Assembly: GCA_017617415.1 (NCBI GenBank)
Contig: JAFZWH010000093.1
Location: 26,218-90,217, forward strand
From: Victivallales bacterium
GTDB lineage: Bacteria; Verrucomicrobiota; Lentisphaeria; Oligosphaerales; Oligosphaeraceae
Reading direction: 5' to 3'
DNA length: 64,000 nucleotides
Shown here: positions 13,673 to 20,143 of the stretch, in pieces
How the letters are laid out: each line of letters starts with the position of its first letter
Position numbering within the stretch: position 1 is the first letter of the stretch
The notes under the pieces: generated by a model
Told to the model about the DNA's origin: nothing
The model's input: only the letters and a program-made list of their open reading frames with translations
The model's database searches: none
Translations under genes and position numbers: made by a program

Positions 13673-16231
13673 TTACAAATCGAAGGTGAGCTGGTTGGGG
13701 TCGTGGTAGGGGCTGCGCCGCCCGCGGCGCTTGGTTTCGGCGAGCTTCGGGCGCTTGGCGTCCTCTTCGTCGAATTCGTTGTTCTCCAGATTCGTGAGCA
13801 CCTGGTCGGCGCGGTCGATGACGATTTTCGGGATGCCGGCGAGCCGTGCGACGTGGATGCCGTAGCTCTTGTCAGCGGCTCCGGGCACGATTTTGCGCAG
13901 GAACATGATGCTCTCGCCCTCTTCCTTCACCAGCACGTTGTAGTTCTTGATGCCAGGCTTGGTGAGCGGGAGGTCGGTGAGTTCGTGGTAGTGCGTGGCG
14001 AAGAGGGTGCGGGCCTTGGCGGACGGGGTGTCGTGGAGGTATTCGGCGATGGCCCAGGCGAGCGAGAGGCCGTCGAAGGTGGAGGTGCCGCGGCCGATTT
14101 CGTCCAGGATGATGAGGCTCTGCGGGGTGGCGTGGTTGAGGATGTTGGCGGTCTCGACCATCTCGACCATGAAGGTGGACTGCCCGCGCGAGAGGTCGTC
14201 CGCCGCGCCGACGCGGGTGAAGATGCGGTCGGCCAGGCCGATAGTGGCGCTTGAGGCGGGAATGAAGGAGCCCATCTGCGCCATCAGGACGAGCAGCGCG
14301 ACCTGCCGGATGTAGGTGGATTTGCCCGCCATGTTGGGGCCCGTGATGAGGCCGATCTGCTGGTCGGTGGTGTTGAGCACGCAGTCGTTGGGCACGAAGG
14401 CCGAGCCCTCGGCGTGTGCGTCCAGCACGGGGTGCCGACCGTCCCGGATTTCGAGAATCGGCGTCTCGGCGATGGCGGGGCGGGTGTAGTTGTAGCGGAT
14501 GGCGTCCTCGGCGAGGGCTCCCAGGCAGTCGATGTTGGCGAGGGCGCGGGCGGTGGTCTGAATCACCGCAATCTGCTTCACGACGGCCTCGCGGAGCTGC
14601 CCGAAGAGCTCGAATTCGAGCGCCTGCGCCTTCTCGTCCGACCCCAGCACCTTGTCCTCGATTTCCTTGAGTTCGGGGGTGATGAAGCGCTCGCCGTTCA
14701 CGATGGTCTGCTTGCGCATGTACTCCGGCGGAACCAGGTCCAGGAAGGACTTGGAGATCTCGATGAAGTATCCGAAGACCTTGTTGAAGCGGACCTTCAG
14801 GGACTTGATGCCAGTGCGCTCCTGCTCCTTGAGCTGGTAGTTGGCAATCCAGTCCTTGCCCTCGGTGGAGGCTCTCCGCAGGAGGTCGAGGTCCGCATTG
14901 AAGCCGTCGCGAATCATCCCGCCGTCGTGGACGGCGACGGGCGGCTCGTCCACCACCGCCTTGGCGATGAGCTCCACCAGCTCGGGCTGTTCGGAGAGCT
15001 TCTCACATTCGTCCAGAAGCAGTCCCGCATGGGCGTTGTGCAGGATGGCCTTGAGGCCGGGGAGCTCCTCCAGACCGCGCCGCAGGACGATGAGGTCGCG
15101 GGCGGAGGCGTTGGTGCCCACGCTGAGGCGGGTGACGGTGCGCTCGATGTCGCGCACGGCGGAGAGAGTCTCGCGCAGTTCGGAGAGGAGCATCGGCTGT
15201 CCGGCGAGGTCCTCCACGGCATCCAGCCGCGCCTCGATGGCGGGCTTGGACTTCAGGGGACGCAGGACCCACTCGCGCAGGAGGCGTGCGCCCATGGGGG
15301 TGATGGTCTTGTCCAGCACGGAGATGAGGGTGTTGTCCTTGCCGTCGGCGAAGATGGGATCCACCAGCTCGAGGTTCCGCTGGGAGATGCGGTCGAGCAC
15401 GAGGCAGTCGTCGGACTGGTAGGAGGCGATGGCGGTGAGGTTCGCGGCGTCCTTGCGCAGGGTGTTCTGGGCGTAGTGGAGGATGGCGCCGGCCGCGCCG
15501 ATGGCGGGTTCGTAGCCGCGGCAGCCATAGCCGTCCAGAGACGCGACCTGGAAATGGCGCAGGAGGTCGCTTCGTGCCAATTCGACGTCAAAATGCCAGT
15601 CCTCCACGCTGGTCCAGACCAGCTGCTGCGGGAGGTCGGCAGGGAAGCCTTCGTTCTGCCAGCGCGAGAGCAGACTGGCGGGGGCCAGGCATTCGGCGGG
15701 CTTCAGGCGGTTGAGTTCGACCTCCAGCGCTCCGACGCCCATGGGGATTTCGGTGATGCGAAACTCAGCGGTGGAGAGGTCGAGCGAGGCCAGCCCCCAG
15801 CGGTTTTTCATCGGCAGAAGCGCCACGAGGTAGTTGCTGCGGTTGGACTCCAGCAGCGTGTCCTCCATCATCGTGCCAGGCGTGATGATTTCCGTGATGT
15901 CGCGCTTCACCAACCCCTTTGCCAGCTTCGGGTCCTCAATCTGGTCCGCCAAGGCGACCTTGTAGCCGCCCGCCAGGAGCTTCGGGACATACTGCCGAAC
16001 CGCGCGGTAGGGGATGCCGCACAACGGCGCGCCCGCTCGGCTGGTCAGCACGACGTCCATCAGCGGAGCGGCGATTTTGGCGTCCTCGAAGAACATCTCG
16101 TAGAAGTCGCCCATCCGGAACATCAGCAGCGTGTCCGGCGCGAGCTGGCGCTTCGCCTCGGCATACTGACGCATCCCCGGCGTGAGTTCGCCCGACAGGC
16201 TGGCGTTTTTGGTTGGTTTGGATTCAGACAT
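13673..16231 (-). CDS. mutS: DNA mismatch repair protein MutS
   Basis: 852 aa with TPGMRQY..FRMGDFYEMFFEDA at the N-terminus, Walker A GPNMAGKSTY, and DEIGRGTSTFDG. Confidence 0.95.
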   Translation of the reverse strand: MSESKPTKNASLSGELTPGMRQYAEAKRQLAPDTLLMFRMGDFYEMFFEDAKIAAPLMDVVLTSRAGAPLCGIPYRAVRQYVPKLLAGGYKVALADQIEDPKLAKGLVKRDITEIITPGTMMEDTLLESNRSNYLVALLPMKNRWGLASLDLSTAEFRITEIPMGVGALEVELNRLKPAECLAPASLLSRWQNEGFPADLPQQLVWTSVEDWHFDVELARSDLLRHFQVASLDGYGCRGYEPAIGAAGAILHYAQNTLRKDAANLTAIASYQSDDCLVLDRISQRNLELVDPIFADGKDNTLISVLDKTITPMGARLLREWVLRPLKSKPAIEARLDAVEDLAGQPMLLSELRETLSAVRDIERTVTRLSVGTNASARDLIVLRRGLEELPGLKAILHNAHAGLLLDECEKLSEQPELVELIAKAVVDEPPVAVHDGGMIRDGFNADLDLLRRASTEGKDWIANYQLKEQERTGIKSLKVRFNKVFGYFIEISKSFLDLVPPEYMRKQTIVNGERFITPELKEIEDKVLGSDEKAQALEFELFGQLREAVVKQIAVIQTTARALANIDCLGALAEDAIRYNYTRPAIAETPILEIRDGRHPVLDAHAEGSAFVPNDCVLNTTDQQIGLITGPNMAGKSTYIRQVALLVLMAQMGSFIPASSATIGLADRIFTRVGAADDLSRGQSTFMVEMVETANILNHATPQSLIILDEIGRGTSTFDGLSLAWAIAEYLHDTPSAKARTLFATHYHELTDLPLTKPGIKNYNVLVKEEGESIMFLRKIVPGAADKSYGIHVARLAGIPKIVIDRADQVLTNLENNEFDEEDAKRPKLAETKRRGRRSPYHDPNQLTFDL

Positions 16232-16233
16232 AT

Positions 16234-18738
16234 TTAGGTGAAGTACTCCACGTCGGGATTCAGGAATCCATATTCGTAGATTTGTGGAAGGAGCTTTTCA
16301 CGCAGGGCGTCGTGCGCGGACTTCAGTGCTGCGAGTTCGGCATTGGCAAGTCCAGCGGCCTTAAGGGCCTGGCGGACTTGGTAGATGCCGACGTCCCAGG
16401 TCTCGATATGCCAGTCCATCCACTGCGTGTTGCAGAGTTGCTCGTAGAAGACCTGGTAAAGTTCCTTGGCGGCGTCCAGGAGTGCCTGCGCCTCGGAGGA
16501 GAGAGCATGCGCCTTCAGCCATTTGGCCAGAAAGCGGTCCTCGTTGGCGGCGGAAAGCTGCAGCGTGAGGTCTGACAGGCCGCATTTCCATTTGCGTATT
16601 TCACTCAACTGGAATGGAAACAGCTGATTCTGGATTTGCCAGACACTGTCTTGGTATTGGACATTGCGCAACGAGACCGCGTAGTTGGAGGGCGCGAAGG
16701 CACTCCAGACCACGCAATCGGTCACGAACTCCTGCGGCAGTTCGGCCGTGGGTGCATAGAAAGAGTCTTTGTTGTTGGTCCAAGTCAATTGAGGTATTCG
16801 TTTGACGGTATGGACGACCATCGCGTACTCGTAATTTTCCTTGGTGACGGAGAAGGCTCCGGCGTTTGCGTATGGTGCCGAAAGAAGACAGGTGGCACCT
16901 TGATTCTGCATGTCATCACCTTTGCTTACCAGAGAAAAAAGGAATCCTTCTGCCACATGGTTACGCTGATCGCGGTTGTTTGTCATCAGGTTGAAGGGAC
17001 TCACAAAGGTGGGCATGATAGACTTGCCATCCCACTTGGGGCGCGGACACCACTTGTTGAGCATCGCTGTGCGTTTGACGGACGAGAGCTGTTTTTTTCC
17101 TAGCTTTTCATTGACATTGTTAAAGATGTCGAAAGAAATCTTTTGTCGTTCAAGATGCCGATGCTGAGCAAGATTCCAAATTAAGAAACTAACTGCAAAT
17201 TGTCCTTTGGCGCCATAGAAGTTTTGTGAGGAAAACGCAAAGCCGCGCCTATAGACATATTGGAAGAAACCATCGCGGACTTTCTGATCGTTGTTGGAAT
17301 TAATGTACTTTAGTGGTGAATATAGGCAAAGCCGTGCGTCTTTTCCCTCGAACTCCTTTGAGATGCGGAAGAGAAATTGGGTGAAGAGTTCACGGCTGGC
17401 CTCGCCATAGTCTTCGTCGTTCATCCATTCGCGGATGGCGGTCATAGAGACGTTGTCCTTGGAACGCTTGCCGGTTTCGCCGCTTTTGGTGTTCGCGGTG
17501 GCGAAGGGAGGGTTGATGAAGACAATCCACTTAAGCTTGGGATTCGCCAGGTCAGTCGCCAGATTCGCCGGCATTTTGCGTTTCGTGCCGTAGGACAGTT
17601 GCCCCGCGAGCAAGCCGACATCATCATTGAGATAGTCATATTGGAAACAAGTCGCTCCAGGGAAAATCTTCTCGCAGTATTTTGCATCGTCCTCCTCCAT
17701 GGTGGAGATGTAGCAATATGGCAATGCGGAGCTGGGCAGATTGAACTCCAGATTTCCGGTGCCGGCGGCCATGTCCCAGAAGCGCCATTCGCCAGATTTC
17801 CACCACTCCTTGCCAATTTCGCGCTCAAGATATTGAAGGCCTTTGGCGGCGAACTCGATAGGCGTGTAGAACTCGCCGGTGAAGCGCCGACGGTAGTCCT
17901 CGGTGAGGCGGTCGGCTTTCTGTCGCATCATCGCCATCTCCTCTGGCGGAATGCGTTCGAAATTTTGCCAGAAATGCTGATAAAGGGTTGGTTGGACGGA
18001 CTTTCGGATGAAATTGCCATCGCCCGTGACATCAAAAAGCACCTCGCCTTTGGGGCGAAGGACAGATTTCCCCTGTTCCAAGTCGGCGAAGAAATACTCG
18101 GAGACCTTGCGGCCGTTGTGGACATATTTGCCGAAGAGCTTCTCCCAGTAGTCATAGACCTCCAGGAAGTTCTGTTCGGTGATGACCTTCTTGTCGAGGT
18201 CGGTGAAAAGCGACGGGGTGAAATTCCTGCGTTCCTGTATTTTCTCGATGAATTGCTTTTCCTCCTCTGGAAGCGTCCAGTCATAAACATGCAGTTTTTT
18301 GCAGCATTCGCATTTGGCGATGGCCGCGCAGAGTTTTGGACAGGGTGTGGAGGGGGCGCGATCCCAGTCATAACGGTCGTCCTGCTCGGCATAGAATTTT
18401 GCGAATTTGCTGGTGCGAAGCAGGAAGCCGGACTTCTTATCTGCAATGCAAATATTCGGCGGGAGCGGCGACTTTACGACGCTGAACTTCAATCGCCGTG
18501 CGTAGTACATCGTCTGGGCGATGGCTTTGGCCCGCTCGTCGAGGTTCTGGAAGTTCCGCTCATATTTGAACTCGTAGAGAATCGCTTCGGTGTAATGGTC
18601 AATTGCACCAAGCGCATTGAGCTTCATCCCGAAGAATCTGCAGAACTCGGCCTTAATTTCCTCTTCCTTTTTGCAGGCTTGAAGTGCTTGGTAGAGGCCG
18701 TTTTGGGGGATTTTTGGGGATTTTACCATGAGAAACAA
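16234..18738 (-). CDS. Fused N6-adenine DNA methyltransferase, type IIG restriction-modification-like
   Basis: 834 aa with gamma-class motif order: FYTP (aa 290), DMAAGTGN (aa 322) and NPPF (aa 409). The N-terminus carries a D47-X8-E56-X-K58 nuclease-like motif and a Cys cluster (CPKLCAAIAKCECC). A ~400-aa C-terminal region lacks recognisable motifs and is a putative target-recognition region. The gene is visibly AT-richer than its flanks. Confidence 0.7.
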   Translation of the reverse strand: MFLMVKSPKIPQNGLYQALQACKKEEEIKAEFCRFFGMKLNALGAIDHYTEAILYEFKYERNFQNLDERAKAIAQTMYYARRLKFSVVKSPLPPNICIADKKSGFLLRTSKFAKFYAEQDDRYDWDRAPSTPCPKLCAAIAKCECCKKLHVYDWTLPEEEKQFIEKIQERRNFTPSLFTDLDKKVITEQNFLEVYDYWEKLFGKYVHNGRKVSEYFFADLEQGKSVLRPKGEVLFDVTGDGNFIRKSVQPTLYQHFWQNFERIPPEEMAMMRQKADRLTEDYRRRFTGEFYTPIEFAAKGLQYLEREIGKEWWKSGEWRFWDMAAGTGNLEFNLPSSALPYCYISTMEEDDAKYCEKIFPGATCFQYDYLNDDVGLLAGQLSYGTKRKMPANLATDLANPKLKWIVFINPPFATANTKSGETGKRSKDNVSMTAIREWMNDEDYGEASRELFTQFLFRISKEFEGKDARLCLYSPLKYINSNNDQKVRDGFFQYVYRRGFAFSSQNFYGAKGQFAVSFLIWNLAQHRHLERQKISFDIFNNVNEKLGKKQLSSVKRTAMLNKWCPRPKWDGKSIMPTFVSPFNLMTNNRDQRNHVAEGFLFSLVSKGDDMQNQGATCLLSAPYANAGAFSVTKENYEYAMVVHTVKRIPQLTWTNNKDSFYAPTAELPQEFVTDCVVWSAFAPSNYAVSLRNVQYQDSVWQIQNQLFPFQLSEIRKWKCGLSDLTLQLSAANEDRFLAKWLKAHALSSEAQALLDAAKELYQVFYEQLCNTQWMDWHIETWDVGIYQVRQALKAAGLANAELAALKSAHDALREKLLPQIYEYGFLNPDVEYFT

Positions 18739-18742
18739 TCCA

Positions 18743-20143
18743 CTATTTCAGAATTCGATTGGCGGCGAGGACGCCAGAGAGCAACGCGCCGACAATGCCC
18801 AGGAGACCCTGGTCGGTGCCGGCGAGCGTGAGGTTTGGGACGCCGGTCGCGCCGTCCGCGAATTTGTCCGGCGAGCCGTAGATGGCGCCGTTGGCGTGTC
18901 CGGTGAAGCGGCAGAAGGTATGCGGCGTGTAGAGGTCGAGGAATTTCGCGTGACCGGCGAGGCGAGGGTAGTAGGCACCCAATTGCGCCAAGAGCGTCTG
19001 CGCCAAGATGGACTTGATGCCAGGAGACATTGCGTCTCGACAGAGGTCATTATGGAGCGGTCCCAGACTGGCGATAGGCGCACTGAGGCGGAGCATCCGA
19101 GTCGGTGTCACACCGACGTAGTTGTCTGGCACGCAGACCAACAGGGAGTCCGTCGGGGCAGTCGCCGACATCGGTCGGAAGGCGAAATTCGACTCCAGCC
19201 CAATGAACTGCATGCAGTCGGTGAGGCCGTAGACCGCAGGAGCGTCGTCCAGTTCAAAGAACGATTCAACGAACTGCACCTCGCCAGGCTGGGCATTTGA
19301 CAATGGCGCGGGAGCGTCGGCGTCGCCGAGCAGTTTCCGCGTCTCCACGGCGCCAATGGTGGAAAGACAACAGTCGGCAGTGAAAATCTGTCCTGAATTT
19401 TCCAGAATTGACTGAAATTTTCCAGAATTGTCCAGGTTGATTTTCGTGACGCCACAGCCCAGGTGAAGTTTGGCGCCGGTTTCCAGAAGGCGTGAAGTCA
19501 GATGTTCAATGACGGGCCGCATGCCATCCTGTGGCCGTGCGAAACCTTCGATGAAGATGCTCTTGAAAAGCGTCGCAAAGGCACTGAAGGGCATCTGGTC
19601 ACCCCAGGCATTGCCGAAGAAGAAGACGGGGAGGCAGAGCAGGTCATGCAACCGCTTGGATTTCAAATGCTCGGCGAGAACCTTGCGGGCGGGATGCTCG
19701 GATGCTGGCGCATCCGCGTAGGCGCATTGCTCGATGCGCTCCACGAGTGCCTCGAAGCCCTTGCGGTCCTCTGGGAATTGCGTAGCGATGCGTTTGCGGA
19801 AGCCCGCGAAGTCGTTATCCAGCGGGAGTTCCGTGGTTCCGCAACGGATGAGCGAGTGGCTCTGCGGGCAAAGGTGGAGGTCTTCACGACGCAGCCGCAG
19901 CTGCCGCAGGGTGCGGTTGAGCGGCGCGGCGGTGTCCGCAGGGGATGCGAAGTTGGTGAAGGCGTGCAGCCCCGTGTCGAAGACACGTCCGTCGCGCTCG
20001 TACCAGGAGTTCAGCCCACCGGCCTTCGTGTGCGACTCGAAGACTCCCACGCGCTTCCCAAAATGCGCAAGACGGATGCTGGCGGCGAGCCCCGAAAGTC
20101 CCCCGCCAATCACCACGACATCGTATTTTGAGTTGAAAGTCAA
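18743..20143 (-). CDS. FAD-dependent oxidoreductase (phytoene desaturase/RetSat-like)
   Basis: YDVVVIGGGLSGLAASIRLAHFGKRVGVFES..AGGL dinucleotide fold and an FDTGLHAF block. The ORF-track start is TTG. Confidence 0.8.
   Translation of the reverse strand: MTFNSKYDVVVIGGGLSGLAASIRLAHFGKRVGVFESHTKAGGLNSWYERDGRVFDTGLHAFTNFASPADTAAPLNRTLRQLRLRREDLHLCPQSHSLIRCGTTELPLDNDFAGFRKRIATQFPEDRKGFEALVERIEQCAYADAPASEHPARKVLAEHLKSKRLHDLLCLPVFFFGNAWGDQMPFSAFATLFKSIFIEGFARPQDGMRPVIEHLTSRLLETGAKLHLGCGVTKINLDNSGKFQSILENSGQIFTADCCLSTIGAVETRKLLGDADAPAPLSNAQPGEVQFVESFFELDDAPAVYGLTDCMQFIGLESNFAFRPMSATAPTDSLLVCVPDNYVGVTPTRMLRLSAPIASLGPLHNDLCRDAMSPGIKSILAQTLLAQLGAYYPRLAGHAKFLDLYTPHTFCRFTGHANGAIYGSPDKFADGATGVPNLTLAGTDQGLLGIVGALLSGVLAANRILK

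Follow-up and report, generated by a model that had tools for sequence, protein, structure and literature searches.

The locus and its genes

The subject of this analysis is a gene located between an oxidoreductase gene and mutS on the minus strand of a 64,000-nucleotide (nt) stretch of DNA from a Victivallales bacterium (GenBank assembly GCA_017617415.1, contig JAFZWH010000093.1, positions 26,218 to 90,217), which we call the window. As judged from sequence comparison and structure prediction, the encoded protein is probably a horizontally acquired, solitary, single-chain restriction-modification enzyme of a type IIG/IIL-like kind, and belongs to a large family that the annotation libraries do not cover. 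The genome of the window is denoted G000; G001, G002 and G003 are its congeners (G002 being the sister species), and G006 represents a different genus. The gene and its immediate neighbours, both of which lie outside the proposed system, are as follows:

16234-18729, minus strand: the whole gene, 831 amino acids (aa) plus stop, ATG at 18729
13673-16231, minus strand: mutS, 852 aa, complete, with Pfam domains MutS I-V
18743-20143, minus strand: flavoprotein oxidoreductase of the flavin adenine dinucleotide (FAD) amine-oxidase/CrtI-like type, the upstream neighbour

An earlier note on this DNA had described an open reading frame (ORF) of 834 aa. This ORF is indeed present, beginning at an in-frame TTG at 18738 (16234-18738, minus strand); the likely start, however, is the ATG at 18729, which is used both by the database protein P0004 (831 aa, 100% identical) and by the G002 orthologue. 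Residues are numbered here from this ATG, that is, three lower than in the TTG-based numbering of that note. Its other observations on the locus agree with ours, namely the identities of the two neighbours (confirmed here as a MutS with Pfam domains I-V and a CrtI/amine-oxidase-like flavoprotein), the tight spacing and the low guanine-plus-cytosine (GC) content. The TAA stop is followed by AT and then by the mutS ATG at 16231, leaving a gap of 2 nt, and the distance from the oxidoreductase stop is 4 nt for the TTG start and 13 nt for the ATG start. Co-transcription with mutS is plausible given the 2-nt spacing. The GC content is 52.0% for the gene, 64.9% for mutS, 60.5% for the oxidoreductase gene and 57.5% for the genome, which places the gene at the 6th percentile among 2.5-kb genome windows; the deviation is real but modest. 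The ratio of nonsynonymous to synonymous substitution rates (dN/dS) over the whole gene, in comparison with the G002 orthologue, is 0.23, indicating that the gene is under purifying selection.

Domain architecture of the predicted protein

Two AlphaFold2 models obtained with family alignments, one of the full-length chain (predicted local distance difference test, pLDDT, 74.6; predicted template modelling score, pTM, 0.61) and one of residues 1-300 (pLDDT 85.3), delineate five parts (residues 1-172, 173-287, ~288-524, ~525-718 and 719-831), listed here together with the putative catalytic motif:

18214-18729, minus strand: N-terminal domain, aa 1-172, putative PD-(D/E)XK (RecB-like) endonuclease; AlphaFold2 pLDDT 85-97 over most of its length
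18565-18600, minus strand: putative catalytic motif D44-HYTEAILY-E53-F-K55, read from the translation; aligns with MmeI 'IDLFW..LxExKS'
17869-18213, minus strand: spacer or connector, aa 173-287, helices and short strands, strongly conserved; pLDDT 84-92 at aa 181-270
17158-17868, minus strand: Rossmann-type methyltransferase core, ~aa 288-524, assigned from its motifs, Foldseek and sub-threshold Pfam N6_Mtase matches in distant relatives
16576-17157, minus strand: putative target-recognition domain, ~aa 525-718, alpha/beta, assigned from its position after the methyltransferase core; boundary inferred from AlphaFold2 secondary structure
16237-16575, minus strand: C-terminal helical bundle, aa 719-831; AlphaFold2 helices 719-819, pLDDT 90-98

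Endonuclease and methyltransferase motifs are found together in this single 831-aa ORF, an arrangement that is conserved across the family. The methyltransferase motifs follow the gamma-class order X (FxTP), I (DxxxGxG) and IV (NPPF/Y) and are invariant in the family: FYTP at aa 287-290 (17860-17871), DMAAGTGN at aa 319-326 (17752-17775) and NPPF at aa 406-409 (17503-17514). These three motifs and the D-X8-E-X-K signature, all of which had been pointed out previously, were verified through translation; with complete or at least 90% conservation in 58-70 diverse homologues, they are far beyond chance expectation. The connector occupies the position of the helical spacer of MmeI (residues 156-300). 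The C-terminal ~400 aa, in which the earlier note recognized no motif, have no library match either, but they can be read as the remainder of the methyltransferase, a recognition domain and a helical bundle, with the putative recognition domain behind the methyltransferase core, its place also in M.TaqI, MmeI and BpuSI.

A profile search with N6_Mtase models, which had been proposed as a check of the methyltransferase assignment, was negative for the window protein, which has no match to Pfam N6_Mtase (PF02384); distant relatives produce sub-threshold matches, the best at 18.9 bits with a cut-off of 20.4. In a whole-model Foldseek search the first match is BpuSI (E 2.9e-6) and the second MmeI (5.6e-5), followed by CamA, type I HsdM, the type ISP enzymes LlaBIII and LlaGI, M.BseCI and M.TaqI, with probabilities of 0.97-1.0 for M.TaqI, HsdM, CamA and M.BseCI; the alignments to BpuSI and MmeI extend over 554-767 columns at the level of the fold.

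Motifs of the NPPF/NPPY type are also found in rRNA m6A/m2G (N6-methyladenine and N2-methylguanine) methyltransferases and in glutamine-N5 methyltransferases, and many of the homologues occupy operon-like positions among core genes, as might be expected of a housekeeping enzyme that methylates RNA or protein. Such a function is nevertheless scarcely credible here, given that every significant match to the fold is a DNA N6-adenine methyltransferase that has a recognition domain, that a DNA enzyme is indicated by the FYTP-type motif X and by the co-linearity with MmeI described below, and that the gene is present in no more than 11 of the 401 phylum genomes and has moreover been transferred between domains of life.

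The N-terminal domain as a candidate nuclease

Among 70 homologues with 32-99% identity, D44, Q72, Y75, D121 and W122 are invariant, and conservation is at least 90% at E22, E23, K26, E53, K55 and Y76. The AlphaFold2 model predicts, in this order, a helix at 22-32 that carries the EE pair, D44, a strand at 50-54 with ExK, a helix at 63-82 with QxxxY and a strand at 92-96. Nucleases of the PD-(D/E)XK superfamily carry conserved acidic and lysine residues on an alpha-beta-beta-beta-alpha-beta core; the topology predicted here is alpha-beta-beta-alpha-beta, and the order of the elements fits a core of the RecB-like variety.

For comparison, genuine MmeI-family genes were collected with Pfam MmeI_N, which detected them in 59 of 301 genomes of the phylum. 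In hhalign comparisons the N-terminal profiles register exactly on the MmeI catalytic core (E 0.06-0.12), and the broader family profile yields P=0.0018 with 16 MmeI-family proteins. At a relaxed threshold a single co-linear alignment is obtained (25-640 with 14-646), which superposes D44, ExK and Q72 on the D, ExK and Q of MmeI and pairs FYTP with HYTS, DMAAGTGN with DPACGCGN and NPPF with NPPF. The catalytic residues of MmeI are D70, E80 and K82, and its chain is divided into nuclease (1-155), spacer (156-300), methyltransferase (301-620), recognition domain (621-825) and helical bundle (826-919) (PMC4833311). We read the resemblance as remote homology with enzymes of the MmeI kind and not as membership in the MmeI family.

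The earlier note had suggested a possible PD-(D/E)XK core at D47, E56 and K58, which are D44, E53 and K55 in the present numbering. This suggestion held up in part: the three residues are conserved and stand in register with MmeI D70, E80 and K82, but the domain lacks a significant match to a nuclease fold. The structural comparison of the N-terminal region that the note recommended has a similarly divided outcome, with a secondary-structure order that fits PD-(D/E)XK and no significant nuclease in Foldseek. Against BFVD, the N-terminal 300 aa retrieve two relatives from their own family only, a 739-aa protein labelled 'N-6 DNA methylase' and a 196-aa stand-alone domain. The assignment of a nuclease to the N-terminus is probable, not proven.

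Not every relative retains the candidate active site. Several proteins of 555-606 aa lack the N-terminal domain entirely, and the homologues in loci L100 and L102, inspected by eye over the first 60 residues as printed, read 'YVFRR' where the family has 'EFK'; these two loci share PHP and HAD neighbours with L094. The MmeI family likewise contains members without the nuclease domain or motif.

Two further features of the N-terminal region deserve mention. The motif 'YDWD(R/L)APS.P', represented in the window protein by YDWDRAP (aa 120-126, window positions 18352-18372), includes D121 and W122, which are present in all homologues, and has no counterpart that could be assigned in PD-(D/E)XK nucleases. 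The CxxxC...CxCC cluster listed in the earlier note is present in the protein, at a site of variable insertions, and outside the sister species it is not conserved. The possibility of an Fe-S or Zn cluster was considered and rejected: four cysteines are invariant in close relatives, and only C94 is kept in the broad alignment.

A putative recognition cassette that differs between sister species

The comparison of the G000 and G002 orthologues shows a mosaic gene, with one internal segment that differs sharply from its surroundings:

16750-17379, minus strand: swapped cassette, aa 451-660, comprising the last methyltransferase strands and the first half of the putative recognition domain

Nucleotide identity between the two species is 98-100% at aa 1-450 and 661-831 and drops to 52-79% at aa 451-660; the corresponding amino acid identities are 98% for the backbone (aa 1-450 and 661-831) and 70% for the cassette. 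The synonymous divergence (dS) is 0.065 for the backbone, 1.69 for the cassette, 0.121 for mutS and 0.423 for the oxidoreductase gene. The cassette of G000 is no closer to that of G002 than to that of any Kiritimatiellae homologue. This pattern indicates that the recognition cassette has been swapped. Replacement of recognition modules through recombination is typical of restriction enzymes under phage pressure, and the swap is the strongest indirect sign that the protein would recognize a specific sequence and that the identity of this sequence matters.

The unequal dS of the oxidoreductase gene (0.42), mutS (0.12) and the backbone (0.065), together with a jump in identity at the upstream border, suggests a recent recombinational exchange of the gene, and perhaps also of mutS, between lineages. 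The jump itself, from 0.885 (18958-18759) to 0.995 (18758-18559), is located near the oxidoreductase stop (18743).

The insertion site beside mutS

The same junction was compared in the congeners, with the following arrangements:

G002 (MutS identity to G000 98.9%): oxidoreductase, intact gene, mutS
G003 (MutS identity to G000 96.5%): oxidoreductase stop, ~200 nt of filler, 117-nt end of the gene, 2 nt, mutS
G001 (MutS identity to G000 95.3%): only 6 nt between the oxidoreductase stop and the mutS start, without any trace of the gene
16237-16353, minus strand: part of the window gene that corresponds to the 3' remnant kept in G003 (85% aa identity over aa 793-831, one TGA)

Within the genus, the intact gene is therefore present at this site in two of the four species (G000 and G002) and survives as a remnant in a third (G003), and in G006 an oxidoreductase homologue is likewise found upstream of mutS. 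The simplest history would be an insertion after G001 had split off, followed by deletion in G003. No target-site duplication or repeat was seen at the borders of the insertion. The recent acquisition that the earlier note had proposed to check by synteny is borne out: G001 shows the oxidoreductase-mutS adjacency without the gene, and horizontal transfer is rampant in the family. A duplication was considered as the origin of the resemblance between the first codons of the gene and the 5' end of mutS, and was rejected since the homologue P0006 has the same N-terminal extension away from mutS.

The filler in G003 (L006:3699-3905, between the oxidoreductase gene and the remnant) is made up of a strongly folding hairpin repeat of ~70 nt and a second piece of repeat. 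At least eight copies of the hairpin repeat, with 78-94% identity, are scattered over the G000 contigs. The deletion in G003 may be linked to the insertion of the repeat.

The position of the gene raises the question, already asked in the earlier note, of whether the methyltransferase might be functionally coupled to MutS. It might, for example, serve in strand discrimination during mismatch repair and be placed 2 nt upstream for this reason. The spacing and the shared orientation suggest co-transcription, the remnant in G003 retains the same junction with mutS, and one homologue is located 3 kb from mutL. The synteny data nevertheless largely refute such a coupling, which we regard as highly improbable. 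Among the fetched loci, adjacency to mutS is confined to the genus of the window; in G001 mutS follows straight after the oxidoreductase gene; mutS is present in all 15 relatives searched, 12 of which have no homologue of the gene in a protein search while G003 has the remnant only; and the enzyme is of the gamma class with a recognition domain of its own and is not Dam-like. The genome also lacks MutH (the Escherichia coli control was positive). The mutS adjacency is thus most likely an accident of insertion and not a functional link. A tempting but wrong connection between a methylase and mismatch repair is thereby removed for this genome, in which the borders of mutS are to be seen as a hot spot for insertion.

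Family, distribution and mobility

The protein has no match in scans against Pfam, NCBIfam and PADLOC, and PDB sequences are matched neither by the protein in phmmer nor by a 62-member family profile in hmmsearch. The family is nonetheless large: a word-indexed database search yields 1,774 matches, every one of them unnamed, and an exhaustive profile search yields 1,859 representatives at 50% identity, of which 675 are below 1e-30. The RefSeq label is 'hypothetical protein', and no description of the family was found in the literature.

The distribution is patchy. Homologues are carried by 4 of 41 relatives and by 11 of the 401 phylum genomes, and full-length homologues with 41-67% identity are scattered over Firmicutes, Bacteroidota, Proteobacteria, Spirochaetes, Cyanobacteria-like lineages and methanogens; their hosts are Kiritimatiellae, Ruminococcus, Butyrivibrio, Treponema, gut Alphaproteobacteria, Gastranaerophilales, Methanobrevibacter, Methanoregula, Bacteroidota, Acidobacteriota, Thiobacillus, Rhodanobacter and others. 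In the tree, homologues group by habitat (gut and rumen versus environmental) and not by taxonomy. More distant full-length relatives, annotated 'hypothetical protein', are carried on plasmids of 9-16 kb; tblastn against deposited phage records gave no match. Horizontal transfer is, by all these indications, rampant in the family.

Near-identical copies are found in a Firmicute (L050, Oscillospiraceae) and a spirochaete (L051, Treponema), both represented by metagenome-assembled genomes, and the archaeal copy of Methanobrevibacter (L060) nests among rumen bacterial copies such as that of Butyrivibrio (L065). Either the genes crossed between phyla in the gut very recently, or the genomes contain errors of binning. 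The identical 825-aa homologue P0092 is found in L024 and in L025/L033 with the same downstream genes, but what lies upstream differs, with ClpB in one case and MutL and two unknown genes in the other; because the context changes within the gene-free stretch of ~0.8-1.1 kb that precedes the gene, this stretch is a rearrangement breakpoint.

As the earlier note had observed for the window, the gene has no partner nearby, and its solitary status extends to the family at large. In ORF clustering over ~75 related loci no neighbour is shared by more than five loci, and those that recur in up to five (ABC transporters, oxidoreductases, PHP and HAD proteins, ClpB) are unrelated housekeeping genes. 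A gene for a YhcG/DUF1016 PDDEXK nuclease is located near the homologue in three loci (L023:3720-5931, beside P0006; L074:8800-9849; and L096), and in L023 a DUF4145 protein is encoded nearby as well; these are the sole hints of a defence-island context.

The data on gene neighbourhoods also bear on the idea that the protein supplies methylation or specificity to a defence system of several genes (BREX PglX-like, DISARM-like or type I-like) whose partners are encoded elsewhere. PglX and the YeeA-type relatives of MmeI do work with partners, and the same genome contains a distant paralogue and a genuine MmeI-family gene. However, the ~75 loci have no conserved neighbour, PADLOC returns 0 matches, and the partner-dependent relatives of MmeI lack the nuclease motif that the window protein keeps, so that a multi-gene system is very unlikely.

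The additional genes of this type in G000 are themselves worth recording. A second, distant member of the superfamily (C28:3-1277, L005), which is truncated where its contig stops, carries the nuclease motif 'IDF...WAEAK' and is 38% identical over aa 251-331, and the genuine MmeI-family gene is split over two contig ends (C3:174-704 and C110:8-229). The 3.2-Mb genome of G000 thus encodes at least three single-chain nuclease-methylase genes.

Several Kiritimatiellae homologues (L008, L010, L028, L031, L035, L038 and L041) contain low-complexity inserts that keep the reading frame and occupy four or five fixed sites in loops, after the positions equivalent to aa ~137-146, ~661-663, ~741 and ~790-797 of the window protein, which is itself free of inserts. 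The same peptide modules recur across sites and proteins ('QTDLLTPNGVRD..VSRVSGEQIRL', 'KERKEHKDFA..', 'GPASVPAMDGTEPVPP' and 'LLSLRGDSE.RSLGE'), one of them at three sites in L041. A search for the modules outside the gene found only a few exact matches, of 23-27 nt. These inserts look like small host repeat elements that are tolerated in surface loops.

The proposed enzyme and its mode of action

The single-chain type IIG-like reading, first put forward in the earlier note, has gained support from the MmeI/BpuSI layout, from BpuSI and MmeI as the best fold matches and from the conserved nuclease motif. Several results weigh against it. Foldseek of aa 1-300 against PDB finds no significant nuclease (DrdV at E 0.3, RecU at E 2.6); a Pfam PDDEXK model is touched by 1 of 70 N-terminal fragments (PDDEXK_9, E 0.009), the rest being noise; profile-profile comparison links the protein to MmeI only weakly (hhalign probability 15%); and the full-length AlphaFold2 model is of moderate quality only, as its pLDDT of 74.6 and pTM of 0.61 indicate. 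PADLOC finds nothing, and most loci are situated among housekeeping genes, not in defence islands. Furthermore, the column entropy of the recognition domain is 1.33 family-wide as against 1.30 for the methyltransferase core, whereas textbook specificity domains are hypervariable; specificity may, as in MmeI, rest on a few residues.

Some of the same results would suit an orphan N6-adenine DNA methyltransferase in which the N-terminal domain is non-catalytic, with a DNA-binding or regulatory function, so that the enzyme marks DNA without restricting it. The absence of a significant fold match of aa 1-300 to a solved nuclease is compatible with this explanation, as are the family members that lack the nuclease domain or the ExK motif, the housekeeping gene contexts, and the presence among the fold matches of CamA, which is a solitary methyltransferase whose recognition domain is C-terminal. 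On the other hand, D44 is invariant, and E53, K55 and Q72xxxY76 show at least 90% conservation across the phyla and line up with the residues proven to be catalytic in MmeI; the sporadic distribution, the transfer, the loss in a congener and the cassette swap also fit conflict-driven genes better than a regulator. We consider an orphan methylase unlikely, although it deserves to be kept in view.

For the restriction-modification enzyme we infer both catalytic activities, site recognition and a role in defence, and the following scheme can be proposed. The recognition domain and the methyltransferase core would hold an asymmetric site on the DNA between them. When incoming DNA is unmethylated, the N-terminal PD-(D/E)XK domain (D44, E53, K55), held at a distance by the spacer, would cut beside the site; with one catalytic centre per chain, double-strand cleavage would probably need two enzyme molecules. 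Arriving in a Victivallales lineage as nothing more than an ORF, the gene would have inserted into the 6 nt that separated the oxidoreductase gene from mutS, where it probably rides on the transcription of the host operon. Later it would have been largely deleted in one congener, and in one of the two sister species the ~630-nt cassette encoding the first half of the recognition domain would have been replaced, probably changing the specificity.

More tentatively, the family might constitute a lineage that is deep, unannotated and sister to the MmeI-type enzymes, whose members spread as bare ORFs into operon junctions of near-zero length and are re-targeted by exchange of ~630-nt cassettes with one another; this broader scenario is possible but doubtful. 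If true, the spread into housekeeping operons without integrase, repeats or flanking DNA would let the gene borrow host transcription, and the alleles of the two sister species would be a natural pair that differs only in specificity, a new scaffold for the engineering of recognition sequences.

The family has implications for the annotation of defence genes in general. Being invisible to Pfam, NCBIfam and PADLOC, it is undercounted in censuses of restriction-modification and defence genes, and it may account for m6A motifs that lack an assigned enzyme in methylomes of organisms that carry it. Enzyme developers would gain an additional single-chain scaffold beside MmeI, with the sister alleles as a ready-made specificity swap.

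Comparison with known systems

A close parallel in overall organization is MmeI (type IIL, PDB 5HR4), which has the same five parts in the same order in one chain, with D...ExK and QxxxY in register and motifs X, I and IV co-linear with those of the window protein. As in the present family, nuclease-bearing MmeI homologues have no companion methyltransferase and no conserved flanking genes, and both families include nuclease-less relatives and a recognizably common scaffold of the recognition domain. Enzymes of the MmeI family modify one strand and cleave ~20/18 nt from the site. There are also clear differences. The window protein is ~90 aa shorter, has D-X8-ExK in place of D-X9-ExK, and has a spacer predicted to be mixed alpha/beta where that of MmeI is purely helical. 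At the sequence level, hidden Markov model and phmmer searches produce no match of the window protein to the MmeI models (MmeI_N, PF20464, and its companions) or to the PDB sequence, and a search of the whole G000 genome with MmeI_N finds the fragments on C3 and C110 and not this gene. Morgan and colleagues are said to have used, in 2009, a BLAST E value below 1e-20 as the similarity criterion for the MmeI family; full-length similarity of this kind is not seen for the window protein, which matches none of the Pfam models MmeI_N, MmeI_hel, MmeI_Mtase, MmeI_TRD and MmeI_C.

BpuSI (type IIG, PDB 3S1S, 878 aa) is the best match of the whole model (E 2.9e-6, 554 columns). It is similar in length and likewise combines an N-terminal nuclease, a connector, a gamma methyltransferase and a recognition domain in one chain, but identity over the aligned part is 13%, TM-scores are ~0.2, no sequence-level match exists, and BpuSI is not recovered when the N-terminal 300 aa are searched alone. 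The only restriction enzyme that appears for these 300 aa is DrdV (type IIL, PDB 7LO5), which is ~200 aa longer than the window protein, at a non-significant E of 0.3-0.8. CamA of Clostridioides difficile (PDB 7LT5; E 2e-4 to 1e-3) shares the methyltransferase core with a C-terminal recognition domain and is also solitary; it lacks the N-terminal nuclease-like domain and the spacer and, in contrast to the patchy distribution seen here, is conserved within one species.

At the level of genome organization, mutS-associated insertions and mobile restriction-modification genes likewise place a foreign gene at a mutS boundary; here, however, mutS is intact and the insertion bears no integrase, repeat or target duplication. 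Neither a system of the BREX or DISARM type, with 0 PADLOC matches and no conserved companions in the ~75 loci, nor a Dam/MutH/MutS-type module, given that the methyltransferase-mutS linkage is confined to the genus of the window and that the genome lacks MutH, is a comparable counterpart. By analogy, the enzyme is one that would work like MmeI or BpuSI while standing outside their sequence families. The biology is of a familiar kind, and what is useful is the gap in annotation and the natural cassette swap.

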